64,000 nucleotides of DNA from positions 869,053 through 933,052 of the forward strand of contig NZ_JAAHIH010000001.1 in assembly GCF_010671925.1 (NCBI RefSeq). The letters run 5' to 3'. Each line of letters opens with the position of its first letter. Position 1 is the stretch's first letter. The position numbers were made by a program, and so were the translations under genes. The notes below the pieces were generated by a model, which saw only the letters and a list, made by a program, of their open reading frames with translations, did no database searches and was not told the origin of the DNA. Source of the stretch: Moorena sp. SIOASIH. Its GTDB lineage: Bacteria; Cyanobacteriota; Cyanobacteriia; Cyanobacteriales; Coleofasciculaceae. This document shows positions 4,246-42,650 of this stretch, one piece after another.

Positions 4246-4450
4246 TACTAACTACTCCATTATTATCTATCCTAACAGTGGATGGAAAGCTTGTTTCTGT
4301 GGTCAGTAACCTTTAGCAACGGACACATTTCAAGTGATAAATGATTACAAATAGATTACAAATATCCTAGTTTATGGATACGATCAAGCTTGACATTCAA
4401 CTCAACTGTTATGTCAAATTCCATGAACATTGGACTAAAGGAGAACAGCC

Positions 4451-6724
4451 ATGAGTTTGATCAGAATTAACACCATAGAATTAACTATTTCCAATCCCGT
4501 AGCGTGGCCCAAGGCCAATCCCGTAGCGTGGCAAAAGGCCAATCATTCCCACTGCCATCACCAACATCACCAACATCAGCCTAGACCCTTTGATCTTGGG
4601 TTACCAGTGACAACGATTTTGCTGGGATTGACCTTTAGCGTCTTCAGCCAAGCTATCCCTTCAAGAATGGTGCCACTAGGATTAGGAGGAACCACAGCTT
4701 TAGCCCAATCAACTCAGGATGATAGGGGAAGGAACCTGGATCGTACCATAGAAAGAAAATTTTTGTTTGTAAACCCAGTTACCGGAAACGACAGTAGTGG
4801 TAATGGCACCCAGGATTCACCGTTGAAAACTATCACTCAGGCGCTACAAGCTGCCCAGCCCAATACTGTGATTGTACTCTCTAGGGGTATCTACAGCAGT
4901 GACATGGGTGAAACCTTCCCCCTACTTCTGAAACCCGGTATCAAGCTACAGGGCAATCCCCGCACTAGAGGTCACGATGTGGTGATTCGCGGCGGTGGTA
5001 CCTTTGTTAGTGCCACGGCTGCTAGTCACGATGTCCTAATCGTAGGTGCTGACCAAACAATTATTTCTGGCGTAACCCTTAACAATACTAATCCAGAAGG
5101 TTATGGTTTGTGGCTGGAAGTCGGTTCGGTTTTAGTGGAAGACAATACCTTAACTGGGAATAGCAAAAGCGGGATTGCTGTGGAGGGAAATAGTACACCA
5201 ACAATTCGCAGTAACTACTTCTACAAAAATAAAGGCAATGGCCTCAGCATTTACGGAACCTCAAACACTCAAGTGGATGACAATGTATTTGAAAATAATG
5301 ACTTAGGAATTCTGATTGCCGAAAACGTTGCACCCCATATCGTTAATAATCGCATCACTGGCAATAGAAATGGGGTAGTGGTTGAAACCAATGCTCAACC
5401 ATTTTTCCAGAATAACCTCATTGAAAATTCCCAACTGGATGGATTAGTCCTCAAGGTGGGAGCTAATCCGGATTGGGGAAATTCACCAGAATCAACAAAC
5501 AATACATTAAACAATAAATTAAACAATATATTTCGAGGGAATGGGCGGTTTGATATTAACAATCAGGACTCTGAGCCTACTGTGATCGCTTTTGGTAATC
5601 AGCTAGAAGAGGAAACTAACAGTGAGGTTAATTCAGGGGAAACTGAAAACGATATCATTCAAGAGTCGGAGGTTGAAACACCAGCTGTTAGTAAACCAGC
5701 TGTTAGTAAACCAGCTGTTAGTAAACCAGCTAGTGCTCCTGATGCTTCTGACAACCAAGCCGTTGTCATGGCAGAAAACTCTAATCACTCACAGAAGACT
5801 AAGCCTAATTCTCAGGAGAATCCAACCACCCCCAGCCAAGTCGTTCCATCCCAACCACCTGCCGAGAAGGAACCTACAAAGGAACCTACATCTGCTCAGG
5901 TCTCAGCAGCTTCATTTCCCGTTCCATCGAGTTTGGAGTCTCAGCCATCTACCTCGACTGATAACATCGGCAAAGACGCAGCACTAAATAATTCTGCCAG
6001 TACTGAATCTTCTAGACCAGCAGCAAGATCCCAAACTCAGAGTCAGGAAACCTCTGAAACCCAACAGCCTTCTGATCCTAGGACTCAACGTTCACATTCT
6101 GAACCCCTGACACCCCTAACTCTGAAAGTTATTCAAAACCAGGAGCAGTCCTCTTTTGAGGAACCAACATCTCCACCCAAACCAGGAGAGGATTCTAGCA
6201 GTTTTGCTCCGGCTTCACCGTCACAGGAAGTGATTGATGCGTCAAGTGACAGCTCAAAACCAACACCGGAAGCACCCTCGACTGAGGACGTTGACGTTAT
6301 GGTGTCAATGTCTAGTCAGATCAGTACACCGGTTAATCAAAATACTAGTAATCAAAATACTAGTAATCAAAATACTAGTAATCAAAATACTAGTAATCAA
6401 AATACTAGTGCTAGCTCTAATTCAGGTAGCTCAATTCCAGTGTTTTCTACAACTACCCAATCAAACTGGCAACAAAGGGTACCTCCAGGGAATAATCCTA
6501 CTTCAGCTCTACCCAGTCGGGGTTACCGGATTTTGGTAAATGCTGAGAGTGAGCAGCAACAAGATTTAATGCGATCGCTAATTCCCGATTCTTTCCTGAC
6601 CTCCTTTGAAGGAAGAACTGTGATGCAAGCGGGATTGTTCACAACCCTGGAAAATATTGATCGGGTTCTGAAATTACTCAGTAGTTATGGTTTGAGCACC
6701 ACTATTGTGCCTCTGAATTACTGA
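4451..6724 (+). CDS. secreted right-handed parallel beta-helix (DUF1565-like) protein with Pro/Ser/Thr-rich linker and C-terminal SPOR-like domain
   Basis: Repeated NxxxGNxxxGI beta-helix units. Low-complexity linker with in-frame 15-nt repeats (PAVSK x3, NQNTS x5). C-terminal ~75 aa resembles a SPOR peptidoglycan-binding fold. The first ~30 codons overlap a CCCGTAGCGTGGCC repeat, so the start is uncertain. Confidence 0.55.
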   Translation: MSLIRINTIELTISNPVAWPKANPVAWQKANHSHCHHQHHQHQPRPFDLGLPVTTILLGLTFSVFSQAIPSRMVPLGLGGTTALAQSTQDDRGRNLDRTIERKFLFVNPVTGNDSSGNGTQDSPLKTITQALQAAQPNTVIVLSRGIYSSDMGETFPLLLKPGIKLQGNPRTRGHDVVIRGGGTFVSATAASHDVLIVGADQTIISGVTLNNTNPEGYGLWLEVGSVLVEDNTLTGNSKSGIAVEGNSTPTIRSNYFYKNKGNGLSIYGTSNTQVDDNVFENNDLGILIAENVAPHIVNNRITGNRNGVVVETNAQPFFQNNLIENSQLDGLVLKVGANPDWGNSPESTNNTLNNKLNNIFRGNGRFDINNQDSEPTVIAFGNQLEEETNSEVNSGETENDIIQESEVETPAVSKPAVSKPAVSKPASAPDASDNQAVVMAENSNHSQKTKPNSQENPTTPSQVVPSQPPAEKEPTKEPTSAQVSAASFPVPSSLESQPSTSTDNIGKDAALNNSASTESSRPAARSQTQSQETSETQQPSDPRTQRSHSEPLTPLTLKVIQNQEQSSFEEPTSPPKPGEDSSSFAPASPSQEVIDASSDSSKPTPEAPSTEDVDVMVSMSSQISTPVNQNTSNQNTSNQNTSNQNTSNQNTSASSNSGSSIPVFSTTTQSNWQQRVPPGNNPTSALPSRGYRILVNAESEQQQDLMRSLIPDSFLTSFEGRTVMQAGLFTTLENIDRVLKLLSSYGLSTTIVPLNY

Positions 6725-17305: not shown

Positions 17306-17512
17306 GCTGTTAGAAGGCAAAAGGCAAAAGGCAAAAGGCAAAAGGCAGAAGGCAAAAGGCAGAAGGCAAAAGGCAAAAGGCAAAAGGCAGAAGGCAGAAG
17401 GCAAAAGGCAAAAGGCAAAAGGCAAAAGGCAAAAGGCAAAAGGCAAAAGGCAGAAGGCAGAAGGCAAAAGGCAGAAGGCAAAAGGCAAAAGGCAAAATGC
17501 CAAAGTAGTTTA
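17290..17512. repeat. (AAGGCARA)n octamer tandem array, ~27 units
   Basis: Direct reading. Both frames give artefactual KAKGKRQ / AFCLLP ORFs. Confidence 0.95.
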
Positions 17513-21008: not shown

Positions 21009-22247
21009 ATGCGCCATCCTATTCAAATTACTAACCACCCAATTCGATTTTTGCTCTACCTGGAGTGGATACTGCTGATCATTACCGCTTTGGTGGAATT
21101 ACTAAAACTTCCTTTTCCCCCGCTACCTAGGTCGCCACTACTCAATTTAGTTTGCCTGGGAGTATTTGGGTTAATGGGATTGAGATTACCAACAAATCAG
21201 CCTATTTATAAGATACTTTACACCGCCGCCGAAATTGGGGTAATTATCTTAGCGTCCATAGTGGGACACATTCGGCTGTTGCAACTGATGTTAATTATAT
21301 TAGTTGTTCGCAACTGTTTTATCTTTGAGTTCCAAGGTCGCTTAGTGATGACTGGATTTGCGGTTATATTATTCCTAATGAGGCAAATGGTTCGATTTCA
21401 GCATCATGCTATGAGGCATCGTCCTCGGTTTAGACCACCTCCTGTGTTCAGAGAACCACCGACAGGGTTGATTCCGGAGCGATTACTATTTATATTATTG
21501 AGTTCTGTCTTGATATTTGTATTGGTCTTAATCGTTTTGCAGCTATTAGTGGATACTGTACTTTCAGAACGAAAAAGTCGGGAAGACCTGGCACAGGCTA
21601 ATGCTCAACTGCGTGACTATGCCCTCCGGATTGAAGATATTGCTACGCTGCAAGAACGTAACCGTATTGCTCGGGAAATTCATGACTCCTTAGGACATTC
21701 TTTAACTGTATTCAATTTACACCTGGAAGCGGCTTTAAGACTATTACAATCTGACCCTGCTGAAGCCAAAGAATTTATATTAGAAGCGAAACAACTGGGT
21801 AAAACTGCTCTGAAGGATGTACGTCAATCCGTTGCTTCCTTGCGTTTAAATCCGTTACAAGAGCAATCTCTAGAAAATGCGATCGCATCCCTAATCGACG
21901 ATTTCCAAAAGTCCACAGCCATCTCACCTACATGCCATCTTAACCTAAAGCGTTCAATCCCTGGCGACATCAAAATCGCAGTTTACCGTATTGTCCAAGA
22001 AGGGTTGACAAATATCTTTAAATATGCTAAGCCTACTGAAGTAGACATCCAAATTCAGACAGCAACAGATTTACAATTAATTATTAAAGACAACGGTATT
22101 GGATTTTCCCTCAACCAGAACACAACCGGTTTTGGTTTACAAGGAATGCGAGAACGCACCCAAGCCTTAGGAGGAACCTTTAAAATTGAGACAGCACCAG
22201 GAGCTGGCTGCAAAATTATCGCTCATTTTCCTTTACCAAAGGTTTAA
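21009..22247 (+). CDS. sensor histidine kinase (HisKA_3 / NarL-partner type)
   Basis: N-terminal TM bundle, H-box REIHDSLGHSLT, and HATPase_c G-boxes (DNGIGF, GFGLQGMRER). Confidence 0.8.
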   Translation: MRHPIQITNHPIRFLLYLEWILLIITALVELLKLPFPPLPRSPLLNLVCLGVFGLMGLRLPTNQPIYKILYTAAEIGVIILASIVGHIRLLQLMLIILVVRNCFIFEFQGRLVMTGFAVILFLMRQMVRFQHHAMRHRPRFRPPPVFREPPTGLIPERLLFILLSSVLIFVLVLIVLQLLVDTVLSERKSREDLAQANAQLRDYALRIEDIATLQERNRIAREIHDSLGHSLTVFNLHLEAALRLLQSDPAEAKEFILEAKQLGKTALKDVRQSVASLRLNPLQEQSLENAIASLIDDFQKSTAISPTCHLNLKRSIPGDIKIAVYRIVQEGLTNIFKYAKPTEVDIQIQTATDLQLIIKDNGIGFSLNQNTTGFGLQGMRERTQALGGTFKIETAPGAGCKIIAHFPLPKV

Positions 22248-22498
22248 GGTATAGCGTTTTTAGTTGAGATGTAACCATATCGCAAAGGGAACAGGGAACA
22301 GGGAACAGGGAACAGGGTAAAGAGTCAGGATTTTTATTGGAAAATAAAAAAATATCATACAGGTTTACATCTCAAATACAAACGCTATATCTAGCAATCA
22401 TAAATTAATTGCGATAATTTTTTACCCTACTCCCTACTCCCTACTCCCTAAAAATAAGTACCTCACAGAATTGACAACTACTATATAATTATTCATCC

Positions 22499-23134
22499 TT
22501 GATGATTCGTATTTTAATCGTAGATGACCAGAGTCTAATTCGGCGTGGATTAAAAGCCTTGCTGAAGTTAGAAGAAGACTTACAGGTAGTCGGTGAAGCC
22601 GAGAATGGACAAACGGCAATTAGTCTGGTAAAAACTTTACAGCCAGATGTTATACTAATGGATATTCGGATGCCTGTCATGGATGGCGTTGCTGCAACTC
22701 GGGAAATTTGTCAGCAATTCCCAGATACAAAGGTATTAGTACTAACTACTTTTGATGATGACCAGTACGTTACCCAAGCCATACAGTGCGGAGCAGCCGG
22801 ATATTTGCTGAAGGATACCCCTCCAGAAGAATTAGCTCAGTCAATTCGAGCGGTTCAAAAAGGGTATACTCAGTTAGGCCCTGGTATCGGCAAAAAAGTC
22901 GCTACTCAAATGCGAGACCCAACTCCTAGCCCACCTCCGGGTTGGGAGGAACTAACTCCCAGAGAGCAGGAAATTTTACGACTAATTGCTACCGGTGCTA
23001 GCAACCGAGAGATTGCTCAGACGTTGTATATTTCTGAGAAGACAGTGAAAAACCACGTTACTCATATTTTGAGTCGGTTGAATGTACGCGATCGCACTCA
23101 AGCAGCAATTTTAGCAAACTCTATGTTGGGGTAG
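22499..23134 (+). CDS. response regulator, NarL/FixJ family (REC + LuxR-type HTH)
   Basis: Receiver ILIVDDQ...D...K motifs and a C-terminal LuxR HTH LTPREQEILRLIATGASNREIAQTLYISEKTVKNH. Confidence 0.9.
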   Translation: MMIRILIVDDQSLIRRGLKALLKLEEDLQVVGEAENGQTAISLVKTLQPDVILMDIRMPVMDGVAATREICQQFPDTKVLVLTTFDDDQYVTQAIQCGAAGYLLKDTPPEELAQSIRAVQKGYTQLGPGIGKKVATQMRDPTPSPPPGWEELTPREQEILRLIATGASNREIAQTLYISEKTVKNHVTHILSRLNVRDRTQAAILANSMLG

Positions 23135-23139
23135 TTCAC

Positions 23140-23645
23140 TGATAATTGATTATGAGCTAGCATTTGTAAGCTGTCAGCCGTCAGCTGTCAGCTGTCAGCT
23201 TTATTAATTCCTGACAGCAGACCTAACAGAGATTAAACGAATGCTTACCTGTTTTATTCAAAAGCTCGCACCTAAAGTAGCGTGCCACAGGCCCAAAGCT
23301 GATAGCTGAATGCTTACTATAATTTATAAATAGCTGTAAGTATTCAGCCGTCAGCTATCAGCCGTCAGCTTATTTTATTCAAAAGCTGTTCGGTGTAGCG
23401 TGCGCTATGGGCAGAAAATGTTCCCGTAGCGTGGCCACAGACCTTTGGCTGAGAGCTGATAGCTGAGAGCTGATAGCTGAGAGCTGATAGCTGAGAGCTG
23501 ATAGCTGAATGCTTACAAATAGCTCATGAACAATATTGCTGATTTCTGATAACATCAAAATATTTATTACTGTTACCTGCTCCCTGTTCCCTGTTACCTG
23601 CTCCCTGTTCCCTGCTCCCTACTCACTACTCCCTACTCCCTACTC
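23140..23645. repeat. cluster of MITE-like elements and heptamer arrays (GTCAGCY, AGCTGAKAGCTGA; TIR GTAAGYATTCAGC)
   Basis: Direct reading. Internal segment TTATTTTATTCAAAAGCTGTTCGGTGTAGCGTGCGC is shared with copies at 24760 and (inverted) 41060. Confidence 0.8.
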
Positions 23646-24702: not shown

Positions 24703-24890
24703 GTAAGCATTCAGCGGTCAGCCGTCAGCCGTCAGCTTTCTGTGGTCAGCCGTCAGCTTATTTTATTCAAAAACTGTTCCCCTAGCGTGGCCAAGAGCTT
24801 ACCGTGGCCATAGGCCAAGGCCAAGCGTGTGCGTAGCGCATAACCTGAGAGCTAAGAGCTGATAGCTGAATGCTGATAGCTGAATGCTTA
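24703..24890. mobile_element. MITE-like element with terminal inverted repeats GTAAGCATTCAGC...GCTGAATGCTTAC
   Basis: TIRs read directly. Internal GTCAGCC heptamers and a conserved TTATTTTATTCAAAAACTGTTCCCCTAGCGTGGCC block. Confidence 0.7.
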
Positions 24891-25019
24891 CAAGATACTA
24901 TTGAAAAAAGCGAAAGGCTTATATAATAATAATTCTGCTCAGAGCTGATAGTTAAGGGCTGATCGCCCGTCCGCTGAGGGCTGACAGTAGAATCTATTGC
25001 GAAAATCCTTGACTACTAC

Positions 25020-25943
25020 GTGGTTATAAGCAATAGAGTTAGGTTAATCTTAAACAAAAGTGAGGTAACGACAATCAACATGGAAGCTATTGAACTCGAA
25101 GTCAGCCAACTAAAATTTTTACTGAAGCTACTGAGCAAACCGGATTATCGGGCATTGATTACGGAAGCGAAACCCAATTCTAAAACCTCAGCGGGGGAAC
25201 GAGATCGAATTTGTCGGGAGTTATGCGATCGCAATTTGATTGACTCTAATCAAGAAATCACAAAAATTCAGATCACTGATGCAGGCAAGGAACTTCTAAA
25301 CCAAGATCAGGCTGAAGTACCAATGAGCACGAAAGAACGCAAAATTATCAAAGCCTGTGAAACAGAACCGACTACTCCCGCCAAGACAAACGTTAAGCCT
25401 GCTAAGACCCGAAAGGAAATCATGGAAGGTTTGATAGAACGGGGTTATATCACAGTAGCAGAAACTAAATTCAAAGATGTCTGGATTACTGAAACCGGTA
25501 TTGAGTACCTATTAAATAATTATAAACCCGTTGGTCGTGGCAATATCAATCTGTCTAAAACCATGCTAGCGGATTATATTGATTTCCTGCGGAAACAGCT
25601 GCCAAACTCAACAACTACAAACTCAGAAACAATCTCAGAATCAGATGGCAATTCAGCTCCGACTCTAGTCAATGCCCCTAATAATGAAGAAATATTACAA
25701 ATTATCAAGGATTTAGACCAAGAACTGGGTACGGAAAACTATTTGCCACTGTTTCATTTGCGCCAAAAGTTACAACCGCCTTTGTCTAGGGAAGAATTAG
25801 ATAAAGCACTGTATAGCTTGCAAGCAGAGGATAAAATTGATCTGAGTGCTTTGGAAGAAGCTAACATGTATACAGAGGAACAAATTGAAGCTGGTATTCC
25901 TCAAAATACCGGGGGGAGGCTATTTTTCATTATGGTGCAGTAA
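25020..25943 (+). CDS. hypothetical protein with two tandem winged-helix-like modules (probable start at M21, MEAIELEV)
   Basis: Internal repeat R..I...L..R.LI.......I.ITD/E.G.E.L appears twice. No catalytic motifs. First gene of a co-oriented three-gene cluster. Confidence 0.5.
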   Translation: MVISNRVRLILNKSEVTTINMEAIELEVSQLKFLLKLLSKPDYRALITEAKPNSKTSAGERDRICRELCDRNLIDSNQEITKIQITDAGKELLNQDQAEVPMSTKERKIIKACETEPTTPAKTNVKPAKTRKEIMEGLIERGYITVAETKFKDVWITETGIEYLLNNYKPVGRGNINLSKTMLADYIDFLRKQLPNSTTTNSETISESDGNSAPTLVNAPNNEEILQIIKDLDQELGTENYLPLFHLRQKLQPPLSREELDKALYSLQAEDKIDLSALEEANMYTEEQIEAGIPQNTGGRLFFIMVQ

Positions 25944-26032
25944 AGTATGATAAACTAACCTAAGGCTTCAAGCTAAGGCTTCCCAATTGTTAATCCTCTA
26001 TCCTTTTCCACTCTATAGATCTAATTTTAGAG

Positions 26033-28045
26033 ATGGCAACGATCCAGGAAATAATTCAACAAGCTCCAAACCCGTTTGACACCGTGACCTTTACTACGGG
26101 TAATTTTTGGGAAGATCCAGACAATGGAGCTGTTAATGTCAAATCGATTCATCAAGATGAAATTAATCAGATAACCACCACCCTCAGTGCGGTGACTCAA
26201 GACCATCGACCCCGCACTATCTTACTGGCTGGTGATCCTGGTGCGGGGAAAAGTTATCTGTTAAAACGGCTCAAACAGCAGCTCAATCAAGACGCCTTTT
26301 TTGCTTATATCGGTCCTTGGGCAAATAGCGATCGCATCTGGCGCTATATCCTCAGGGAAACCGTTGAAAGTCTGCTCAAAATCCCAGAAGGAGAACAAGA
26401 GTCTCAGTTACTGCTGTGGCTCAAGAGTCTCCCGGTCTTTAAAAAAACCGGCTGGCTCCGGAATGAGCGACAACAGTTTATTGGTGACCTCAGAGCTACC
26501 TATCCAACCGGAATTCATAGAAATAAGGAATTTTTTGGAGTCCTCTATGAACTAACTAATCCAGAACGATATCACTTGGCTTATCAATGGTTAAGGGGAG
26601 AAGATTTAGATGAAGATGATTTGGAAACCCTTCGGGTCAGAGGCTCTATAGATAACGAAGACGATGCTCAGAACATCTTAATCAACTTCGGGAGAATTTC
26701 TTCATACACCAAGCCAATTGTGCTGTGTTTTGACCAATTGGATAATATTCCTCGTTTGCCTGATGGTTATCTGGATCTAGAAGCTCTGTTTAATGTCAAC
26801 TCTACCCTCCATACTCGCTATCCCAATAACATGCTGATTATAATCAGCATGATTAGCAATACCTTGAGACGGAATCAAAAACAAATTAAACCCGCTAATA
26901 TTGCTAGACTTAATCATAAAATTCTGCTCAAAAGGATTACCCTAGAGCAAGCAGAATCCCTTTGGGCAAACCGACTATATTCGTTACATCAGCAAGCTGA
27001 TCAAAAACCAATTTTACCGATTTATCCTTTAACTCGGCAAGACCTCGAAAAAGCATTTCCTGGTGGCAAAACTACTCCTCGGGAGACATTGACCCTGGGA
27101 AATCAGCTAATTGAAAGATATAAAACTCAGATAGTTAATAGTTCAGATCCATCAACCAAGACTAAATCAACTAGTCAAGATGATACCGCTGGTAAATCAA
27201 TACCGAGAGCAGAAAAAGCCTTAGCTTCATTTAAATGGAAGTGGCAAAAAGAATTTCAAAAAACTGAGCAGAAAATTACCCGAATCGGAACAAATTATGA
27301 ACCTGAATTGATTAAGATGTTACGAGAGGCATTAGAAGCTCTGGAGGTCAAGGATGTTAAATCAAACTTTTTGTCAGGTAGTTTTGCCAGTTATTCCCTA
27401 AGTTACCAGCTGCCATCATCCCAGGAACGGATCGGATTAGTCTGGGGAGAAACTACTAATGGTAACAGCTTTTATCATCTGATGAATGCCTGTGATAAAG
27501 CTATTCAAGGCAATCGCTGTCAAACCTTATACCTAATTCGCTATACAGAAGTTAAAAAACGTGGTCTTAAGGGGGACAAACTCTACAGCAAACTATTCAA
27601 TGGTTCTGGCCATATTCACCTCAAATTAGAAGACCTCTCCTCTGTCTATTACTTAGCTACTTATCATAGCTTAGTTAATCAAGCTTTTTCCCAAGAGTTA
27701 GTGCTTGCTGATACAATACTAACACTGCCAGAGTTACAAGATATAATCCGAAAATCGTTAATTTTGCAGGATTGTCCCTTACTACAAGAGTTGAATATTT
27801 TTCCTAGTAAGGTTAACGATACTCAACTTGTTACCAAGCCGGTTAAGGAATTTGTGATAAATCTGCTCAAACAGAATCAAATTATTGGTCATAATGTTTT
27901 AATTAAAACTACTCAGAATAAATTGACTTCCATCAAGGAAATAGCAATTCACCAAGGAATTAAGGAACTGTCTCAGGAAAATAAAATTAAACTTCTCCCT
28001 GTGGATGGTTCCCTAGATAAACAATTAGTATGTTTGGTACCGTAA
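26033..28045 (+). CDS. P-loop NTPase, NACHT-like STAND family
   Basis: Walker A GDPGAGKS. Walker B hhhhFDQLD resembles NACHT hhhhDGhDE. Long alpha-helical C-terminal region. Confidence 0.6.
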   Translation: MATIQEIIQQAPNPFDTVTFTTGNFWEDPDNGAVNVKSIHQDEINQITTTLSAVTQDHRPRTILLAGDPGAGKSYLLKRLKQQLNQDAFFAYIGPWANSDRIWRYILRETVESLLKIPEGEQESQLLLWLKSLPVFKKTGWLRNERQQFIGDLRATYPTGIHRNKEFFGVLYELTNPERYHLAYQWLRGEDLDEDDLETLRVRGSIDNEDDAQNILINFGRISSYTKPIVLCFDQLDNIPRLPDGYLDLEALFNVNSTLHTRYPNNMLIIISMISNTLRRNQKQIKPANIARLNHKILLKRITLEQAESLWANRLYSLHQQADQKPILPIYPLTRQDLEKAFPGGKTTPRETLTLGNQLIERYKTQIVNSSDPSTKTKSTSQDDTAGKSIPRAEKALASFKWKWQKEFQKTEQKITRIGTNYEPELIKMLREALEALEVKDVKSNFLSGSFASYSLSYQLPSSQERIGLVWGETTNGNSFYHLMNACDKAIQGNRCQTLYLIRYTEVKKRGLKGDKLYSKLFNGSGHIHLKLEDLSSVYYLATYHSLVNQAFSQELVLADTILTLPELQDIIRKSLILQDCPLLQELNIFPSKVNDTQLVTKPVKEFVINLLKQNQIIGHNVLIKTTQNKLTSIKEIAIHQGIKELSQENKIKLLPVDGSLDKQLVCLVP

Positions 28046-28320
28046 GCTATCAGCAATCAGCAATCAGCAATCAGCTATCAGCAATCAGCTATCAGCAATC
28101 AGCTATCAGTTATCAGTTATCAGCTATCAGCTATCAGCTATCAGCTATCAGCTATCAGCTATCAGCAATCAGCTATCAGCTATCAGCTATCACAGGCTAG
28201 AAGCCTGTGCCACACTACTTGAGGTGCCATTGGCCAAAGACTGACGGCTGACCGCTGACGGCTGACCGCTGACGGCTAAAGATTATTCTACCATAGCTAA
28301 AATTCGGATAACAAGCGCCA

Positions 28321-31062
28321 ATGTACCTGACTCAACCAGCCCAGATCCGAAAGTTAATCCTGAATTTATCAGCAGCAAAAATTCTCTGGTTAGATACAGA
28401 AATTGCTGATTGGGATACCCCTAATCCGAGATTATCTCTGATTCAGGTATTGGCTGATCCGACAGATACAAATGGTGAAAAAGCTTACATTTTAGATGTA
28501 TTAGACAAACCGGAAGTAGTGATAGACTTTGTTAACTATATTATGGTCAATCCTAACATTGAAAAAGTCTTTCACAACGCTAGTTTTGATTTACGGTATC
28601 TAGGGGGTAAAGAGCAAGCTAATAATGTTACCTGTACCTATAAAATAGCGAGAAAGCTGACCAATAAGAAACTGTCTAATCCATTAGAGGTATCCAATAG
28701 TAAATTAAAAACACTAGCGCTAGAACTATGCCATTTCGCCAATGTCGATACAGACGAACAAAGCAGTGATTGGGGCAAACGTCCGCTAACCGAAAAACAG
28801 CTAAAGTATGCAAAACTGGATACAGTGTATCTAGCCCATGTCCATCGCCGCTTACTAGAAATTGCCAAAAATAGCTCGAATCCAGAGCAGATGGTCACCA
28901 GAAAATCACGGACGCAACAATCAGAATCCCCTGGCTTCAGTGTTACCCAAGTTAGGGTAGCCCTTGAATGTCCTCGCTTATTTTATTTGAGTCATCACTT
29001 TGGTGGAAAAACCCTATTTATACCACCATCCAACTCACCAGGTATTGGGACAGTATTCCATCAGCTATGTCAACAGTCTACTGACACACTCCAGCAAGAT
29101 TCCCGATTTCAAGCTTTATTTTCTCCCACAGCAAGTCAGCTAGACCTAGGCCAGATTAGCTCTAAGATCCAAGCGCTACTGTATGAGCTAGTGGTTTTCC
29201 CTCAAATCGATGACTTAGAGATAGCCTCCCTACTTCCACTGTGGCAAGGATTAAAATCACTATTTCCCCATTGGACTCAACTGCTAGTTACTAATCGAGG
29301 CTATTGTCAGCCAGAGGAAGTAATTAGTAAAACCTTCGTTGCTCAAGAAATGAACCTCAGTTATAACTTCACTCTTCCTGATGGCACCGAGCAACACGTT
29401 AATGGAAAATTTGATAGCTTAATTTTCGACTGTGAACGCGATCGCTATTGTGTCGTAGACTATAAAACCTATCAACCGGTAGATCCATCCGCTAACCTAG
29501 CTCAAGTAGCTCTCTATAGTTACATGCTCCACCAAAAAAAAGGAGTAGCAATAGATGCAGCGGTTTATTGTGTTTTACCGGAATTCCAAAAACACTACTA
29601 TTCCCGGGAAGAGCTAGAGGATACAGTGCATCAGCTCATTCCCCATAAATTACAACAGATGCGGGAATGGCTGACTTGGAAACCTGCCCAGGTCGAAGAG
29701 GAGGGAGATGGAGAAAGTAGAAAAAACCATTGCACTCCAGCAATCGATAAGGGCAACCTGGAGCCACCACCACCGACACCACAGCTTCAGCTATGCAACA
29801 TTTGTCCCCAACAGCAGACCTGTCAAACCTTTTTTGAGGAGGTGAAAACTGAGCAAAAGCCAGTCAAGGCACCATCCCGCAAAATTCCTGAGACTGAGCA
29901 AAAGTCGGTTAAGCCACGTACCGCTAAAACTCGTAATCCTGAGCAAAAGCCAGTCAAGGCACCATCCCAAGCAACTCCTGAGACTGATCAGATCGGGCAA
30001 AAATTGGTGAGTACTCTAGAAGGCTTTAACATTAGTGTCGATTATGTCAACGCAACAGTTGCTCCAGCATTTGTCCGGATCAAGCTAAAACCCAATCGTG
30101 GGGTAAAAGTCATATCTATACAGAATCGCTCCAAGGATTTAAAAGTACACTTAGGTCTGGATAATCCTCCGCTGATTACTCCGAAAGCTGGGTATGTCAG
30201 TGTGGATTTACCACGGAAGGATGAGGATAGAGAAGTAGCTAGATTTGATGACTATATCCAGCTTACAGCAAATTCCGCCCCCCTAACCCCCCAATCTTGG
30301 GGGGAAATTGAGTTAAAGTCTCCCAGGATTGCGGTTGGAGTAAATTTAGATGGGAAATTGGTAGAGGCGGATTTATCGGATCCTAATACCTGTCACTTTT
30401 TGGTAGGGGGCACAACCGGAAGTGGCAAGAGTGAATTTTTGCGATCGCTTCTGCTATCCCTACTTTATAACCATTCTGCTGAACAGCTCAAAATTGCTCT
30501 AGTTGATCCCAAGCGCGTCACTTTCCCAGAATTTGAGCAAATGCCATGGTTGCTGTCACCAATCGTTAAAGATAGCGATCGCGCTATCGAACTGATGGAG
30601 CAATTAGTTGATGAAATGGAGCAGCGTTACCGGAAATTTGAACAAGCCAAGTGTCCTCACCTGGATGCTTATAATCAGCAATTGAGTAATAAACAAAACC
30701 TAGCTTTACCTCGGATAGTTTGTATTTTTGACGAATATGCTGACTTCATGGCAGAAAAAGAAATCCGCAAAGAGTTAGAATTAAGCATTAAGCGTTTAGG
30801 AGCCAAAGCTAGAGCAGCTGGGATTCATTTGATTGTTGCTACTCAACGGCCAGATGCTAACGTTGTTACTCCGATTATTCGCTCTAATTTACCAGGGCGA
30901 ATTGCTTTACGCACAGCGTCTGAAGCCGACTCAAAGATTATTTTTGGTGGCAGCAACACTGAAGCAGCTTATTTGTTGGGTAAGGGAGATTTATTATATC
31001 AAAAGGGTGGTAAGTTAGAGCGATTGCAGAGTTTGTTTGCTGAGACAATTAAATTGCCTTGA
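28321..31062 (+). CDS. three-domain fusion: DEDDy 3'-5' exonuclease + Cas4/RecB-like 4-Cys PD-(D/E)xK nuclease + FtsK/SpoIIIE-type DNA translocase ATPase (no gamma domain)
   Basis: ExoI LWLDTE, ExoII FHNASFDL, ExoIII YAKLDTVY. Cys...C-x2-C-x5-C (ECPRLF; CNICPQQQTC) with GKFDSL, VVDYK and QVALYSY nuclease motifs. FtsK beta-domain, Walker A GGTTGSGKSEFL, Walker B IVCIFDEYADF, and ATQRPDANVVTPIIRSNLPGRIALRTASEADSKIIFG. Confidence 0.75.
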   Translation: MYLTQPAQIRKLILNLSAAKILWLDTEIADWDTPNPRLSLIQVLADPTDTNGEKAYILDVLDKPEVVIDFVNYIMVNPNIEKVFHNASFDLRYLGGKEQANNVTCTYKIARKLTNKKLSNPLEVSNSKLKTLALELCHFANVDTDEQSSDWGKRPLTEKQLKYAKLDTVYLAHVHRRLLEIAKNSSNPEQMVTRKSRTQQSESPGFSVTQVRVALECPRLFYLSHHFGGKTLFIPPSNSPGIGTVFHQLCQQSTDTLQQDSRFQALFSPTASQLDLGQISSKIQALLYELVVFPQIDDLEIASLLPLWQGLKSLFPHWTQLLVTNRGYCQPEEVISKTFVAQEMNLSYNFTLPDGTEQHVNGKFDSLIFDCERDRYCVVDYKTYQPVDPSANLAQVALYSYMLHQKKGVAIDAAVYCVLPEFQKHYYSREELEDTVHQLIPHKLQQMREWLTWKPAQVEEEGDGESRKNHCTPAIDKGNLEPPPPTPQLQLCNICPQQQTCQTFFEEVKTEQKPVKAPSRKIPETEQKSVKPRTAKTRNPEQKPVKAPSQATPETDQIGQKLVSTLEGFNISVDYVNATVAPAFVRIKLKPNRGVKVISIQNRSKDLKVHLGLDNPPLITPKAGYVSVDLPRKDEDREVARFDDYIQLTANSAPLTPQSWGEIELKSPRIAVGVNLDGKLVEADLSDPNTCHFLVGGTTGSGKSEFLRSLLLSLLYNHSAEQLKIALVDPKRVTFPEFEQMPWLLSPIVKDSDRAIELMEQLVDEMEQRYRKFEQAKCPHLDAYNQQLSNKQNLALPRIVCIFDEYADFMAEKEIRKELELSIKRLGAKARAAGIHLIVATQRPDANVVTPIIRSNLPGRIALRTASEADSKIIFGGSNTEAAYLLGKGDLLYQKGGKLERLQSLFAETIKLP

Positions 31063-31141
31063 TCGTAAGCATTAAGCAGTCAGCCGTCAGCCGTCAGCTA
31101 ATAGCTCATGCTACGGGAACAACCGTCAGCCATAACACACC

Positions 31142-31870
31142 CTACTCAACACCCCGAGCCACACGAAAACCGACATTGGTTTTGATGGCATCGCGCGTGA
31201 AATTGTAGTCGCGTTGGGCAGAACGGCAATGAATAGGAGAGCTGGTCCAGGACCCGCCCCGCAGAATATATTTAGTATGATTACTAGTAGGTTTAGTCCA
31301 GACACTCCCATCTGTAGGAGGATCTCCTTTGTAATTATCATGCCTTGGATCCGCACACCACTCCCAAAGATTGCCGTGCATATCGTATAAGCCAAAGCCG
31401 TTGGGGGGAAAAATTCCTACGTCGGTGGTTTCTTCTCGATATTTCCATTCTTCTTCCTCTGCATAAGTAAAGTCACCGTTATAGTTAGCTAATTTACTGG
31501 TTATGGTCTCTCCATAATGGAATGGTGTGGTAGTTCCTGCTCTACAAGCGTATTCCCATTCCGCTTCACTGGGTAATCTGTATTCCGTTCCTGTATGTTT
31601 AGAGAGGCGATCGCAAAATTCCACCGCATCGTACCAGCTTACTTGCTCTACTGGTCGCTTCTCTCCTTTAAATATCGAAGGGTCTGGCTTTAAGTCCCGG
31701 TTAACTTTTGGGAGTTTGGCCACAGCTCGCCATTGCGCTTGGGTTACCAGATATTTGCCCAGGAAGAAGGGTTGGATGGTTACTTGGTGTTGAGGTCTTT
31801 CAGTTTCATCACTCCCCCTCTCAGTTTCCGGGGAACCCATTAAGAAGGTTCCGGCTGGGATATACACCAT
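31142..31870 (-). CDS. stand-alone formylglycine-generating-enzyme/sulfatase-modifying (FGE-sulfatase, FGS) domain protein; truncated tandem duplicate of the 3' half of 32680..34878
   Basis: ~70% aa identity to the C-terminal domain of the CHAT-FGS protein (MVYIPAG...RLPSEAEWEYACRAGTTTPFHYGETITS...YDMHGNLWEWC). Nucleotide similarity extends upstream to ~32010. Confidence 0.7.
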   Translation of the reverse strand: MVYIPAGTFLMGSPETERGSDETERPQHQVTIQPFFLGKYLVTQAQWRAVAKLPKVNRDLKPDPSIFKGEKRPVEQVSWYDAVEFCDRLSKHTGTEYRLPSEAEWEYACRAGTTTPFHYGETITSKLANYNGDFTYAEEEEWKYREETTDVGIFPPNGFGLYDMHGNLWEWCADPRHDNYKGDPPTDGSVWTKPTSNHTKYILRGGSWTSSPIHCRSAQRDYNFTRDAIKTNVGFRVARGVE

Positions 31871-32176: not shown

Positions 32177-32581
32177 TTATAGAATTTCATAAAAAGTGTT
32201 AGGATTTTTATTTTGACAATCGGGACAACAATCTCTGTAAGACTTTTGCATTTGTTTTATCAAGTTTTTTTCTAAAGGAATCAATATATTGATTAAACTA
32301 GTGGTAATTTTGAAATTTTCCTCAATCGCTTTTAATTTAGCATTATTTTGATTTTGTTTAAGTGCTCTATCAATTAATTCTTCTAACTGATTGTAAGCCT
32401 GACAATACATTATTAATTTGTGAACTATTGCCTTTAAATTTCCACCGCTAGCAACCTCGTTCAGATTTATATTTAATTCAAAAAGCACCATCATTTCTAA
32501 GTCAGTTTTATCAGGAAAAGCACTACACAGTGCTTCGTTTATCTTTTTGAGTAGATAACCAAGGGTATGTCCAGTATTCAT
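32177..32581 (-). CDS. small alpha-helical protein of unknown function (AT-rich, ~30% GC)
   Basis: 134-aa ORF, C-terminal CCPDCQN. Lies in an AT-rich insert between the two FGS copies. Confidence 0.45.
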   Translation of the reverse strand: MNTGHTLGYLLKKINEALCSAFPDKTDLEMMVLFELNINLNEVASGGNLKAIVHKLIMYCQAYNQLEELIDRALKQNQNNAKLKAIEENFKITTSLINILIPLEKNLIKQMQKSYRDCCPDCQNKNPNTFYEIL

Positions 32582-32679: not shown

Positions 32680-34878
32680 CTAAATCTTCCCAACACTCTG
32701 AGCCACACGAAATCCGACCTTGACGAAGATGAAAACGCTCAGTTTAAAGAGGTTAAAGTGGTCGGAGTAGTCGGAGCGGAAGGCAGAACGGCAATCCCCA
32801 GCCTCGGTGTTCCACGAGCCGCCCCGCATAATATAATAATTAAAAGGATTATGTTTTTTACTCCAGACACTCGCATCTGTAGGGGCTCCTTTGTAATTAT
32901 CATGGAAAGGATCCGCACACCATTCCCAAACATTTCCGTGCATATCGTATAAGCCAAAGCTGTTGGGAGGAAAACTTCTTACTGGGGTGGTTTTTCTTCG
33001 ATACTCCCCTTTTTTTTCCTTTGCATAAGTATCGGAAGCCTTATAATTAGCTAATTCACTGGTTATAGTCTCTCCATAATGGAATGGTGTGGTAGTTCCG
33101 GCTCTACAGGCATATTCCCATTCTGCTTCACTGGGTAATCTGTATTGCTTTCCTGTATATTTAGAAAGGCGATCGCAAAATTCCACTGCATCGAACCAGG
33201 TTACTCGCTCTACTGGTCGATTCTCTCCTTTAAATTCAGAGGGGTCTGGATCTAAGTCATGTTTAACTTTTGGGAGGTTTTGAACCACAGCTTTCCATTG
33301 CGCCTGGGTTACCTGATATTTCCCCAGGAAAAAGGGTGGGATGGTTACTTGGTGTTGAGGTCTTTCCCTGTCATCAATCCACCTCTCTCTTATCGAGGAA
33401 CCCATTGAGAAGCGTCCTGCTGGGATATACACCATATCTAGGGGGTCTACTCCATTGCCCAGATCTTGAGTAAAATAACTTGCTTGTTTATTTTCTCGCT
33501 CGCTTATTAATCCTTTACCGTTAACTGTTACTACTTCAAAGGAAAACTGCTTTAGACCTTCTGGATGTTGCCCATTACCAAATAACTTCCCCCCCTTTTT
33601 ATCAGACCAACGTAGGTAAAGCACTGGGCGATACCATTGGTTTCCCTCTCTACCCATTTGAGCCTGTCCCATACTAACAGCAGTAGTTAGGACTTTTTTG
33701 TTCCCTAATGCTCGATAAAACCGCTCTGCAAAAGCAGTTGCCCCTTTTACGGTAACATTGTATTGCATAGCTACCACTGCTGGAATCTGTTGCTCTATCA
33801 ATTTTTGAGCCACACCGTTGAACACAGAATCGCTTCCCAGTGCCTTCCCCGTTTGACAAGCACTCATAACCACCAAACGAATGCCTTGGTCTGGTTTTTG
33901 TTCTAAATCAAGATTACTTTTTTGAATCAGCTCACTAATTTCTGTAGCACTAATATAATCGGCCTCTTTAGTACTATCTTTTTGGTTAGGTTTAAACAGT
34001 AAGTAACCTTGGGGAGATGGATCTAAAGGATAGCCACATTTTCGGCATTCCTTCGCTGTGAGATCGTCATGGATAGTACGGCATTGCTCTTGATTGCAAC
34101 GTTTACCGAAAAAGCCATGACCATCGAAGTGAATGAGATGAGGCGTTTTGTCTTCAGAGATTTGGGTGAGGTAATCTCCAAATTCTTTGAAAGTCGGAGA
34201 TTTTAGGGTTTCTACCTCAATTGTGCCTTCTGCTTCAGCTTGTTTGAGTCCTCTTAGTATAGCTGTTTGCTCTTGATAGTCAAGGGAAACTAAACCCATA
34301 TCTGTATCGCCAACAGGGGATGAGACCAGGAAAACCTTGATTTTGTTTACTGGTGGAAGTTCAGGTATTTTTTGGACAAAGCCAATTAACCGTGAAAAAG
34401 TCACTTGTCGTCCAGCCAGAAATCCGCGATCGTCGCAAGCTAATTCCCAAGGATAATCCGGTAAACGTCCTCTCTGGTCAATTTTTTCATTAAATTGAAT
34501 TTGAATATGTAGTTGTTCCCCTTTATCAAGGCTCCCTAACATTATAGTTAATAAATCCCTGCCATCTCCTGGGGGAAAAAGAGTGTTATAGATATCTTTT
34601 CCAATCTTCTTTAATAGTTGGGTATCGAAATGATTACCCTCTGAAGTAAGCCACCCTTGCTTTTTCATCCATTCTACTTCTTCCTCATAAAAGTTATTGG
34701 ATTTAAAAGCTACAGCACCAAGGGCGTCAATCATAGTAGTTCGCCATTGCTTTCTATTTTCAAAAAAGGGTAAACGGGAATGATAATCTGCATGACCAGC
34801 TTCTCCATAGGCATAAATTTGGATTTCTCCTGGCTCTGCACTTCTGGGTACGGTTAAAAATAATGTCAGTAGTTTCAT
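32680..34878 (-). CDS. CHAT (caspase-like) peptidase fused to C-terminal FGE-sulfatase (FGS) domain
   Basis: Caspase-fold His/Cys dyad (HLIHFDGHGFF; LVVMSACQTG). C-terminal SUMF1/FGE motifs as above. Confidence 0.85.
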   Translation of the reverse strand: MKLLTLFLTVPRSAEPGEIQIYAYGEAGHADYHSRLPFFENRKQWRTTMIDALGAVAFKSNNFYEEEVEWMKKQGWLTSEGNHFDTQLLKKIGKDIYNTLFPPGDGRDLLTIMLGSLDKGEQLHIQIQFNEKIDQRGRLPDYPWELACDDRGFLAGRQVTFSRLIGFVQKIPELPPVNKIKVFLVSSPVGDTDMGLVSLDYQEQTAILRGLKQAEAEGTIEVETLKSPTFKEFGDYLTQISEDKTPHLIHFDGHGFFGKRCNQEQCRTIHDDLTAKECRKCGYPLDPSPQGYLLFKPNQKDSTKEADYISATEISELIQKSNLDLEQKPDQGIRLVVMSACQTGKALGSDSVFNGVAQKLIEQQIPAVVAMQYNVTVKGATAFAERFYRALGNKKVLTTAVSMGQAQMGREGNQWYRPVLYLRWSDKKGGKLFGNGQHPEGLKQFSFEVVTVNGKGLISERENKQASYFTQDLGNGVDPLDMVYIPAGRFSMGSSIRERWIDDRERPQHQVTIPPFFLGKYQVTQAQWKAVVQNLPKVKHDLDPDPSEFKGENRPVERVTWFDAVEFCDRLSKYTGKQYRLPSEAEWEYACRAGTTTPFHYGETITSELANYKASDTYAKEKKGEYRRKTTPVRSFPPNSFGLYDMHGNVWEWCADPFHDNYKGAPTDASVWSKKHNPFNYYIMRGGSWNTEAGDCRSAFRSDYSDHFNLFKLSVFIFVKVGFRVAQSVGKI

Positions 34879-35086: not shown

Positions 35087-35461
35087 CTATATCGATTTTC
35101 CACTTTTACCTTTGATCGTTCCCTCTATACTGTTGTTGATTGAGGGAAGAACAGTTCCTGGATATAAATCTTGACAGTATCGCTTCATTTCCTCTTTACT
35201 ATACAACGGCGATAGTTTAACCTTCACTTTTTGAAGTGAATCCTGACCAACTCCACCACTAGCTTCTGCTCCACCAACGGATAAAACATTCATTTTAATG
35301 CCAGCTTTTCCTTCTCTTTTCAGGGTTACTTGAAGCTCTAGTTCAACTGATTCCACAAAAAGAAAAGGAGCTGTTTTATTTTTTGCAGGTGTTAGTAATT
35401 CCCCTTTGACTTGCTCAACCAATTCCGCAAGTCCAATCGAACTATTTCCGTTATCAGTCAT
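35087..35461 (-). CDS. trypco2-family small protein (trypsin/CHAT co-occurring domain)
   Basis: Pattern IGLAELVEQVKGEL...FLFVESVELELQVTLKREGKAGIKMNVL...KVKVKLSP matches the small proteins that accompany CHAT/trypsin effectors. Same strand and adjacent to the CHAT gene. Confidence 0.6.
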   Translation of the reverse strand: MTDNGNSSIGLAELVEQVKGELLTPAKNKTAPFLFVESVELELQVTLKREGKAGIKMNVLSVGGAEASGGVGQDSLQKVKVKLSPLYSKEEMKRYCQDLYPGTVLPSINNSIEGTIKGKSGKSI

Positions 35462-36272: not shown

Positions 36273-36760
36273 AAATAAGGGAGTAGGGAGTAGGGAGTAG
36301 GGAGTAGGGAGTAGGGAGTAGGGAGTAGGGAGTAGGGAGTAGGGAATCGGGAATCGGGAATCGGGAATCGGGAATCGGGAATTAAGAATTAAGAATTAAG
36401 AATTGGGAATTGGGAATCGGGAATCGGGAATCGGGAATAGAAATTATCACAATTTATTTAGGTTCCCTATAACTTTCAACTTTGAACTTTCAACTTTGAA
36501 CTTTCAACTTTCAACTTTCAACTTTGAACTTTCAACTTTGAACTTTCAACTTTCAACTTTCAACTTTCAACTTTCAACTTTCAACTTTCAACTTTCAACT
36601 TTCAACCTTCAACTTTCAACTTTCAACCTACTCTCAACCTTCAACCTTCAACCTTTCAACCTTCAACCTTCAACCAACCTTAAGCCTTCAACCTACTTTC
36701 AACCTTCAACCTACTTTAAACCTTCAACCAACTTTAAACCTTCAACTAACTTATACTTTT
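36270..36760. repeat. 490 bp of consecutive heptamer arrays (GGGAGTA, GGGAATC, AAGAATT, CAACTTT/GAACTTT, CAACCTT)
   Basis: Direct reading. ORF 36403..36843 is an artefact of the arrays. Confidence 0.95.
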
Positions 36761-40977: not shown

Positions 40978-41215
40978 GTAAGCTATCAGCTATCAGCTAT
41001 CAGCTATCAGCTATCAGCTATCAGCTATCAGCGCTGTAGCCACGCTACCGGAACAGTTTATGCCCATAACCAAAGCTACACCGAACAGCTTTTGAATAAA
41101 ATAAACTGACGGCTGATGAATAAAATAAGCTGACGGCTGACGGCTGACGGCTGTTGGCGTAGCCTGCGCGTAGCGCATATGCTTACGATAAAGGTTATGT
41201 CGAAATCAGGTAATT
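40978..41215. mobile_element. MITE-like element (AGCTATC array + inverted copy of the conserved CTGTTCGGTGTAGC...AATAAAATAA block + GCTGACG array)
   Basis: Reverse complement of the internal block found at 23380-23420 and 24760-24800. Confidence 0.65.
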
Positions 41216-41922: not shown

Positions 41923-42129
41923 ATGACTATTTGGGTAAACGAGCAGATTGATCCATCAGGTCTTCTATACTCTTGTATTGCTACATGCAACGAAGAGCAG
42001 GCTAGGGATTGCCACGAGTCGTTTCAGAACAACTTGACTGATCAGCAAAAAGCAGCGGGTTGGGTTGCCCGATTACGCACAGTTAATTCTTGGGATGAAG
42101 TGCCCGTGAATACCTTGAAACTTAATTAG
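41923..42129 (+). CDS. small hypothetical protein
   Basis: 68-aa ORF. No motif. Confidence 0.3.
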   Translation: MTIWVNEQIDPSGLLYSCIATCNEEQARDCHESFQNNLTDQQKAAGWVARLRTVNSWDEVPVNTLKLN

Positions 42130-42650
42130 AATGTAGAATGAAGAATTAAGAATCAAGAATTGAGAATTGAGAATCAAGAATTGAGAATTGAGAATCAAGA
42201 ATTGAGAATTAAGAATTAAGAATTAAGAATTAAGAATTAAGAATTAAGAATTAAGAATTAAGAATTAAGAATTAAGAATTAAGAATTAAGAATTAAGAAT
42301 TAAGAATTAAGAATTAAGAATTAAGAATTAAGAATTGAGAATGAAGAATTAAGAATTGAGAATGAAGAATGAAGAATGAAGAATTAAGAATTAAGAATTA
42401 AGAATTAAGAATTGAGAATTCTGCCTTCTACATTCTACATTCTACATTCTGCATTCATTCTACATTCTGCATTCATTCTACATTCTACATTCTACATTGT
42501 ACATTCTACATTGTACATTCTACATTCTTCATTCTTCATTCTTCATTCTTCATTCTTCATTCTTCATTCATTCTTCATTCTTCATTCATTCTTCATTCTA
42601 CATTCTTAATTCTTCATTCTTCATTCTTCATACTGACCTTCTAAGCCCAA
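42130..42650. repeat. inverted heptamer arrays (AAGAATT / GAGAATT ... then CATTCTA / CATTCTT)
   Basis: Direct reading. The arms are partially complementary. Confidence 0.9.

Follow-up and report, generated by a model that had tools for sequence, protein, structure and literature searches.

What do three adjoining genes of the cyanobacterium Moorena sp. SIOASIH do, and do they form a new defence system? They lie at 25020-31062 of the 64 kb stretch of DNA analysed here (the window). The initial annotation described them as a DNA-binding protein, an NTPase and a DNA pump carrying two nuclease domains, which could be matched to no described defence system. Three co-oriented open reading frames (ORFs) were indeed present:

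25020..25943, plus strand: ORF1, RcaD ortholog, 307 aa, GTG start
26033..28045, plus strand: ORF2, RcaG ortholog, 670 aa
28321..31062, plus strand: ORF3, fusion of exonuclease, Cas4-like nuclease and FtsK motor, 913 aa

The logic of a DNA binder, an NTPase and a pump with two nucleases was borne out by the domain calls. It also held that the trio matches no named defence system, but genes 1 and 2 are members of already-named families, RcaD and RcaG. The trio has the appearance of a so far uncharacterised machine for DNA degradation or end processing, and not of a mobile, named defence system. Most likely, although we hold this tentatively, the chromosomal rcaD-rcaG-(exo-Cas4-FtsK) operon encodes one DNA-processing machine used in genome maintenance for the processing of broken or linear DNA.

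A scan at the species level, with one genome per species, gave 324 matching stretches, and the best 80 of these 324 were used for locus analysis. The best 80 loci were all cyanobacterial, from Moorena, Coleofasciculus, Xenococcaceae, Aerosakkonema, Microseira, Hormoscilla, Halomicronema and many Nostocales.

ORF3, an FtsK-type motor with two nucleases

The composition of ORF3 was given in agreement by Pfam, NCBIfam and PADLOC, and residue conservation was compared in 74 orthologs. Its parts were as follows:

28327..28860, plus strand: DEDDy 3'-5' exonuclease domain, residues 3-180 (Pfam DNA_pol_A_exo1, 4e-29)
28936..29826, plus strand: Cas4/AddB-type PD-(D/E)XK nuclease, residues 206-502 (Pfam PDDEXK_1, 2.7e-15; PADLOC and TIGR Cas4 matches)
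29848..29987, plus strand: 45-bp tandem repeat, 3.1 copies, encoding a Pro/Lys-rich linker from nuclease to motor (Tandem Repeats Finder (TRF) and translation)
29962..31002, plus strand: FtsK alpha and beta motor, residues 548-894 (Pfam)

The exonuclease domain matched RNase D, NrnC and Rrp6 among PDB sequences. It contained the ExoI DxE, ExoII D and ExoIII YxxxD motifs of the DEDDy family, and the residues D25, E27, D90, Y163 and D167 were invariant in 74/74 orthologs. In the second nuclease, D365, D/E380, K382, Q395 and Y399 were invariant in 73-74/74 orthologs, and so were four cysteines (C217 and C492-x2-C495-x5-C501), which make the pattern of the Cas4, AddB and Dna2 iron-sulfur nucleases. 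With D...(D/E)xK, QxxxY, the N-terminal Cys and CxxCx5C all in place, the domain is a predicted iron-sulfur nuclease of the Cas4/AddB type. For the motor, FtsK_alpha (548-631, 5.1e-9) and FtsK_SpoIIIE (669-844, 1.3e-39) both scored above the Pfam cutoffs. Walker A (GGTTGSGKS, 696-704) and Walker B (DEYAD, 804-808) were invariant across orthologs, and the best solved relative was Pseudomonas aeruginosa FtsK (PDB 2iuu, 1.9e-47). The invariance of these residues indicates that all three predicted activities of ORF3 are under purifying selection.

A membrane anchor was absent from ORF3, no 19-residue hydrophobic window of which exceeded 1.6. The Ftsk_gamma domain, which reads FtsK orienting polar sequences (KOPS) or SpoIIIE recognition sequences (SRS), gave no match in ORF3, and the protein stops about 20 residues past the motor. 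As predicted from its sequence, ORF3 is a soluble FtsK-type motor with neither membrane anchor nor KOPS-reading domain. Databases annotate it as 'DNA translocase FtsK'.

Forms of ORF3 without the exonuclease domain also occur (Cas4-FtsK, 686-747 aa), and orthologs of ORF3 differ much in total length (about 840-990 aa). The tandem repeat at 29848-29987 encodes 'EQKPVKAPSxxxPET' three times, in the stretch that links the Cas4-like nuclease to FtsK alpha. The 'ftsK' of Nostoc punctiforme (Npun_R4092) is co-expressed with division genes and is at most a candidate ortholog of ORF3.

ORF1 and ORF2, orthologs of RcaD and RcaG

In the model of ORF1, three winged-helix domains occupy residues 28-94, 104-167 and 222-306, and residues 195-217 form a disordered linker. 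Its conserved start is probably Met21 (ATG at 25080), as judged from the alignment of homologs; the Moorena ortholog was expressed by its authors from an upstream Val start (PMC2799420). M. producens proteins (P0241 and P0244) were 89-94% identical to ORF1 over 93-97% of the length. Among these is the M. producens 3L protein LYNGBM3L_33350, which we take to be protein 7968 of the literature.

Protein 7968 of Lyngbya majuscula (now Moorena) has 304 aa and a Val start, and is 43% identical to RcaD of Tolypothrix PCC 7601 (PMC2799420). It was pulled down with DNA beads on the jamaicamide promoter and shifted promoter DNA in gel-shift assays (PMC2799420). Unrelated DNA fragments were also bound (PMC2799420), so no specific site can be assigned to it. 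Its neighbour downstream, protein 7969, is 49% identical to RcaG (PMC2799420), which that account describes as a putative ATPase, encoded downstream of rcaD, that may help RcaD to bind DNA. RcaD and RcaG themselves were published in 2002 as regulators of chromatic adaptation in Calothrix (Tolypothrix, Fremyella) sp. PCC 7601. As relayed by PMC2799420, RcaD binds the cpc2 promoter and affects several operons (Noubir et al. 2002, Mol Microbiol 43:749).

Orthology of ORF1 and ORF2 to RcaD and RcaG was supported by the identities in the literature (43% and 49%), by database names and by the position of rcaD directly upstream of rcaG. Both NCBI and UniRef label the Tolypothrix tenuis ortholog of ORF1 'transcription factor RcaD', and in the locus of T. 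tenuis PCC 7101 (L047) the two orthologs are labelled 'transcription factor RcaD' and 'Orc1-like AAA ATPase'. The support for RcaD and RcaG as sequence-specific regulators is thin. The third gene of the operon is not discussed in the RcaD/RcaG literature searched, outside of which lies the original 2002 paper. Profile hidden Markov models of both families found no second RcaD or RcaG copy in the window; an All4300/5336-type paralog pair is mentioned in PMC2799420.

From N- to C-terminus, ORF2 comprised an ORC/Cdc6-like AAA+ ATPase (about residues 42-370), a middle domain of alpha/beta type (about 392-586) and a winged helix (about 602-668). Walker A was GDPGAGKS (residues 67-74), and Walker B was of the form hhhhD-Q (hhhhD-Q/N in orthologs), without the catalytic Glu. 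Pfam-type matches were to AAA_16, AAA_22 and KAP P-loop models. The initial annotation took ORF2 for a NACHT-like STAND NTPase, which did not hold, as the NACHT match was confined to the P-loop (E 0.002) and the fold was ORC/Cdc6-like. STAND/NACHT membership calls for a NACHT/NB-ARC module above threshold together with a repeat or sensor domain, and this combination was not found in ORF2. The folds nearest to RcaG were ORC/Cdc6, TnsC and MuB, all of which mark DNA for a partner machine. The C-terminal half of ORF2 had no Pfam match at E values up to 10 and no PDB sequence match, and the topology a-b-b-b-a-b hints at a candidate restriction-endonuclease-like fold. RcaG was the fastest-evolving member of the trio (mean pairwise identity 54%); among Moorena species it falls to 72% identity, with ORF1 near 90%.

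Conservation and inheritance of the operon

The trio proved to be a conserved neighbourhood, as the initial annotation had proposed to check, with the same order and strand in 73 of the 80 loci. Directly upstream of ORF3, ORF2 was found in 78 loci and ORF1 in 74, the misses being mostly at contig ends. Over the 73 complete loci, the median gaps were 55 bp (ORF1-ORF2) and 31 bp (ORF2-ORF3), with overlapping genes in some loci; the gaps in the window were 89 bp and 275 bp, respectively. The pairwise identities of ORF1 and ORF3 were correlated (r 0.83). In the 23 loci that share IleS, divergence of IleS was tracked by ORF3 (r 0.84) and ORF1 (r 0.80), and the trio looks vertically inherited in these loci from such sequence comparison.

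For the flanks, genes of GT4 glycosyltransferases were observed upstream in 39 loci and of GT2 glycosyltransferases in 33, and IleS downstream in 25. Representatives of 134 flank gene clusters were screened against PADLOC, in which no recurrent defence family was found and no family matched more than 2-3 of the 134 clusters; the few matches were to generic kinases, TnpB and similar. The flanks in many loci are of housekeeping type, and an argument from defence islands therefore cannot be generalised. An ORF3 profile scan of IMG/VR gave no relative, and a viral origin was rejected. With housekeeping flanks, the tracking of IleS and no viral copies, the trio shows the behaviour of a long-standing chromosomal operon, not that of defence-island cargo.

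A ParA/MinD-type ATPase gene recurred downstream of ORF3 on the same strand in 49 of the 80 loci, the window not among them. It may be a fourth operon member or mere conserved synteny. The gene (AAA_31/CbiA, about 294 aa) is 75-94% identical among Nostocales, with a median gap of 286 bp; one example is found in Nodularia (L083:12770-13654), with a gap of 154 bp.

Two loci carried an expanded array RcaD1-RcaG1-RcaG2-RcaD2-RcaG3 before a single ORF3 (L051:1355-12607 and L037:637-11700). The array paralogs were orthologous between the two loci (75%, 70% and 52-64% identity) and 45-56% identical to one another, with Walker A kept in all; such an array would suit a loader of several ORC-like subunits. 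Another locus (L079) has an additional RcaG, of more distant kind, at 3306-5354.

Proposed function in DNA-end processing

In the proposed mechanism, RcaD and RcaG would form an ATP-dependent module for DNA recognition and for loading or licensing, which would replace the missing gamma domain of ORF3. Winged-helix gamma domains load FtsK at KOPS. RcaD and RcaG could mark DNA for their partner, as ORC/Cdc6, TnsC or MuB do, and load the ORF3 motor, as a hexamer, onto duplex DNA. The ORF3 hexamer would then pump the duplex past six tethered copies of each nuclease, where the Cas4/AddB-like nuclease and the DEDDy 3'-5' exonuclease could cut and degrade the strands. The result would be processive resection or degradation of DNA ends, a functional analogue of RecBCD/AddAB and HerA-NurA outside those families, and linear foreign DNA might be destroyed incidentally. 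It has been reported that recBCD is frequently absent from large cyanobacterial genomes (PMC5101192). This reported lack, together with the vertical and housekeeping-like behaviour of the operon, is the reason why genome maintenance is preferred over defence.

Several observations weigh against this preference. The published phenotype of rcaD, as far as PMC2799420 relates it, concerns expression of phycobiliprotein operons and not DNA repair. Divergence of RcaG did not track that of IleS (r 0.34), as might be expected of a fast-evolving sensor. In one locus (L053), ORF3 was present with no RcaD or RcaG within 8 kb. In Pseudanabaena sp. PCC 7367 the trio is located on the 328-kb conjugative plasmid pPSE7367.01 (190629-195588, L081). 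Finally, a BLAST table of 2009 for protein 7968 had no hits outside Cyanothece 7424, Tolypothrix 7601, Trichodesmium, Nodularia, Microcoleus 7420 and Synechococcus 7335 (PMC2799420). PCC 7120, A. variabilis, N. punctiforme, Synechocystis and S. elongatus are missing from this table, which implies, indirectly, that the operon is absent there. Such apparent absence from model strains would make the operon dispensable, which fits defence too.

The plasmid trio of Pseudanabaena lacks the exonuclease domain and consists of a 266-aa protein, a 680-aa P-loop NTPase and a 688-aa Cas4-FtsK, with overlap of ORF2 and ORF3. It adjoins a DEAD/DEAH helicase gene and a SWIM zinc-finger gene.

A wider claim, which is possible though we are doubtful of it, is that RcaD and RcaG are loading subunits, and not primarily regulators, of an FtsK-dual-nuclease machine so far found almost only in cyanobacteria. 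This machine would fill the niche of RecBCD/AddAB/HerA-NurA in polyploid cyanobacteria with large genomes, its tasks being break resection, clearance of trapped or surplus chromosome copies and destruction of linear foreign DNA. With the three winged helices of RcaD in place of three KOPS-reading gamma domains, cyanobacterial chromosomes would be expected to carry a guide or self-recognition sequence that has yet to be discovered. If the proposed mechanism is right, the operon would represent a new design in which a ring translocase is coupled to nucleases, in one polypeptide and with an ORC-like ATPase loader. It would also be a candidate answer to how DNA ends are processed, or DNA is disposed of, in large-genome cyanobacteria lacking RecBCD. 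Two proteins cited for 20 years as regulators of chromatic adaptation, one of them also proposed for natural-product clusters of Moorena, would be reinterpreted. In practice, the machine might hinder the genetic manipulation of filamentous cyanobacteria, among them Moorena, in which transformation has been difficult.

Neighbouring genes and repeats in the window

Next to the trio the initial annotation placed a CHAT/FGS/trypco2 conflict module, which was confirmed and is found only in Moorena loci. Domain scans gave the following genes:

31142-31870, minus strand: FGE (FGE-sulfatase)
32177-32581, minus strand: EAD1 effector-associated domain protein
32680-34878, minus strand: CHAT-FGE fusion
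35087-35461, minus strand: Trypco2 protein

The FGE and CHAT-FGE genes recurred only in four Moorena loci, and the window neighbours as a whole (histidine kinase, response regulator, FGE, EAD1, CHAT-FGE, Trypco2 and PriA) in 3-7 Moorena loci only. Upstream of the trio, a HisKA_3 histidine kinase and a LuxR/NarL-type response regulator are encoded at 21009-23134, a pair seen in Moorena loci only; about 1.9 kb of repeat-rich DNA separates them from the trio. No tRNA or Rfam feature was found in the region scanned.

Elements resembling miniature inverted-repeat transposable elements (MITEs) were located at 24703-24891, 28042-28290 and about 31065-31130. They are built from the terminal inverted repeat GTAAGCATTCAGC and arrays of heptamers (AGCTATC, TCAGCCG), and one of them lies within the operon:

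28042..28290, no strand assigned: MITE-like heptamer-repeat element between ORF2 and ORF3, 7-nt unit x21 (TRF)

The 275-bp gap between ORF2 and ORF3 is a Moorena-specific repeat insertion, which varies in size among Moorena loci; in other genera the two genes are about 31 bp apart. The flanking elements noted by the initial annotation are real, but they do not bound the trio, since GTAAGCATTCAGC occurred in 22 copies throughout the window against 1.4 expected; the repeat is therefore uninformative on the trio. Heptamer arrays occupy most intergenic regions (for example 17314-17505, 36278-36746 and 42124-42643; TRF). Further MITE-like elements were seen at 2632-2831, 23166-23516, 40978-41153 and 62424-62678.

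The HIP1 palindrome GCGATCGC was present in 34 copies in the 64 kb, against about 1 expected. In related loci its median was 0.58 per kb, with 0 in 21.7 kb of L037. As a guide sequence HIP1 (GCGATCGC) was unsupported, because L037 bears the operon without any copy.

Alternative explanations

Dedicated defence against phages or plasmids is a serious rival, to which we give a limited but real probability. Here RcaD and RcaG would act as an ORC/STAND-like switch that senses invader DNA or a phage cue and releases ORF3 to shred foreign or host DNA, in the manner of SspFGH, DndFGH, MADS or HerA-based systems, as a chromosomally retained system. An ATPase, a DNA binder and a nuclease-translocase make a typical layout of defence systems, and FtsK/HerA motors occur in SspH, DndH, mad8 and HerA systems. 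Remote Cas4-FtsK/HerA fusions include proteins (P0459 and P0504) for which DndH models give a match. The general layout, the apparent absence from several model strains, the conjugative-plasmid copy of Pseudanabaena and the fast evolution of RcaG with its duplication in some lineages are what keep this explanation alive. The CHAT/EAD1/Trypco2 module adjoining the Moorena operon points the same way, but it is restricted to Moorena loci. In contrast, the position of the operon is stable and housekeeping-like across orders with divergence that tracks IleS, and its flanks hold no recurrent defence genes. In the window flanks no modification partner (dnd, ssp or methylase) was seen. No NCBIfam antiphage model was applicable to the trio and PADLOC gave nothing specific, ORF1 and ORF2 being fitted by no antiphage model of either set.

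ORF3 did match the PADLOC model of SspH (234 bits, 8.4e-70), and mad8 as well. In a control, the Klebsiella FtsK motor matched the same SspH model (207 bits, 7.9e-62), so the SspH match of ORF3 reflects the generic shared motor, and a link to SspH was rejected. SspH itself ends in an FtsK-like region (PMC8092258). The models of SspF, SspG, DndF and DndG were matched by neither ORF1 nor ORF2, and no ssp or dnd modification gene was among the ORFs scanned from 17.5 to 39.3 kb, which places the trio outside SspFGH.

It is improbable that RcaD and RcaG are simply a transcription factor and its ATPase helper, acting on phycobiliprotein operons, or on jamaicamide in Moorena, with ORF3 as an unrelated neighbour, perhaps the FtsK of cell division. 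The binding of RcaD to the cpc2 promoter and its effect on several operons, the place of rcaG downstream (all as given by PMC2799420), and the database names of RcaD and ORF3 speak for it. Against it, the Moorena ortholog bound unrelated DNA with no specific site, and the operon is found in many cyanobacteria of diverse lineages. That the linkage is almost without exception, with gaps of about 31 bp, and that the divergence of ORF1 correlates with that of ORF3 points to a single functional unit. Moreover ORF3, with neither anchor nor gamma domain and with two active-looking nucleases, is unsuited to be a chromosome-segregating FtsK.

Spread on plasmids was considered as well. Among 72,556 plasmids scanned, an RcaG-like gene and a Cas4-FtsK occurred together only in Pseudanabaena PCC 7367. 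The remaining cyanobacterial plasmid matches were a distinct FtsK of All7666 type, and plasmid spread of the trio was rejected. This Nostocales plasmid paralog (H2-H16, for example NC_003240.1 170920-171942) resembles ORF3 in the motor alone (about 38% identity). It is probably of the All7666 type, and we take NC_003240.1 to be pCC7120beta of Nostoc PCC 7120. All7666 is used as a 'putative FtsK' in studies of the Anabaena divisome.

An origin from a conjugative element or a plasmid remnant, either with TraB-like FtsK transfer or as an ORC-like initiator with a ParA partition cassette, is highly improbable. The Pseudanabaena copy, the ParA-like gene directly downstream in 49/80 loci and a weak NCBIfam TraB match (41.7 bits, 5.6e-11, far below the cutoff of 800) would favour it. 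Against it, no relaxase, integrase, type IV secretion system gene or tRNA target was near the trio in the window or recurrent in the flanks, the setting is of housekeeping type in many loci with divergence tracking IleS, fused nucleases are incompatible with delivery of intact DNA, and the plasmid FtsK is a different, motor-only paralog. The initial annotation had named a conjugative module, or an integrative and conjugative element, as what would overturn its proposal, and none was found near the trio.

Comparison with known systems

SspFGH, DndFGH and MADS (mad8) likewise consist of three genes: one encodes an ATPase with a Walker A motif, one a small protein, and one a large protein with an FtsK-like motor at its end. 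Membership of SspFGH calls for homologs of SspF, SspG and SspH beside the sspBCD genes of phosphorothioate (PT) modification, and no PT genes adjoin the trio. SspH and DndH are about 1,500-1,700 aa long, and their N-terminal regions differ from that of ORF3.

The RcaD and RcaG of PCC 7601 share with the trio both families and the order rcaD-rcaG. Their published role in phycobiliprotein expression, in the form in which it is cited, leaves the conserved third gene unexplained. The RcaD/RcaG pair of the trio occurs in many cyanobacterial lineages, nearly always directly upstream of the motor-nuclease.

With HerA-NurA and RecBCD/AddAB, the trio has in common a translocase or helicase coupled to nucleases that act on both strands. 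The resemblance to these systems drawn by the initial annotation is kept as a functional analogy, but not as membership: HerA models matched weakly and over short stretches (E 1e-8 to 1e-3), and NurA was absent. The ORF3 motor belongs to the same FtsK-HerA superfamily as HerA, and the four-cysteine pattern of its PD-(D/E)XK domain is common to AddB, Cas4 and Dna2. Homologs of NurA, RecB, RecC and RecD are lacking in the trio, and we know of no Chi-like regulation for it. Unlike those systems, ORF3 holds the motor and both nucleases in one polypeptide and adds a DEDDy exonuclease, and the trio has an ORC-like AAA+ protein and a three-winged-helix protein as accessories.

The alpha and beta motor of FtsK/SpoIIIE/SftA is strongly shared by ORF3, which belongs with them in this part. 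It does not in the others, as the N-terminal membrane domain and the gamma winged helix are missing and two N-terminal nucleases are added. RcaG differs from ORC/Cdc6, TnsC, MuB and STAND proteins by an alpha/beta domain of about 200 residues between lid and winged helix and by Walker B of the D-Q/N form, its sequence likeness to them being restricted to the P-loop region. From STAND NTPases it differs also in having no STAND-type repeat sensor.

As to novelty, each part comes from a known family, and two of the genes already have names. What appears undescribed in the literature searched, which did not take in Iyer et al. 2004 and Noubir et al. 2002, is the machine of three genes as a whole, its wide occurrence in cyanobacteria and the reinterpretation of RcaD/RcaG. 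Distant Cas4-FtsK/HerA fusions are found in other phyla, some of which match DndH or mad8 models (P0459; P0503 of Roseimaritima). The fusion of a Cas4-type nuclease to such a motor is thus a recurring theme, of which the cyanobacterial operon is a distinct variant.

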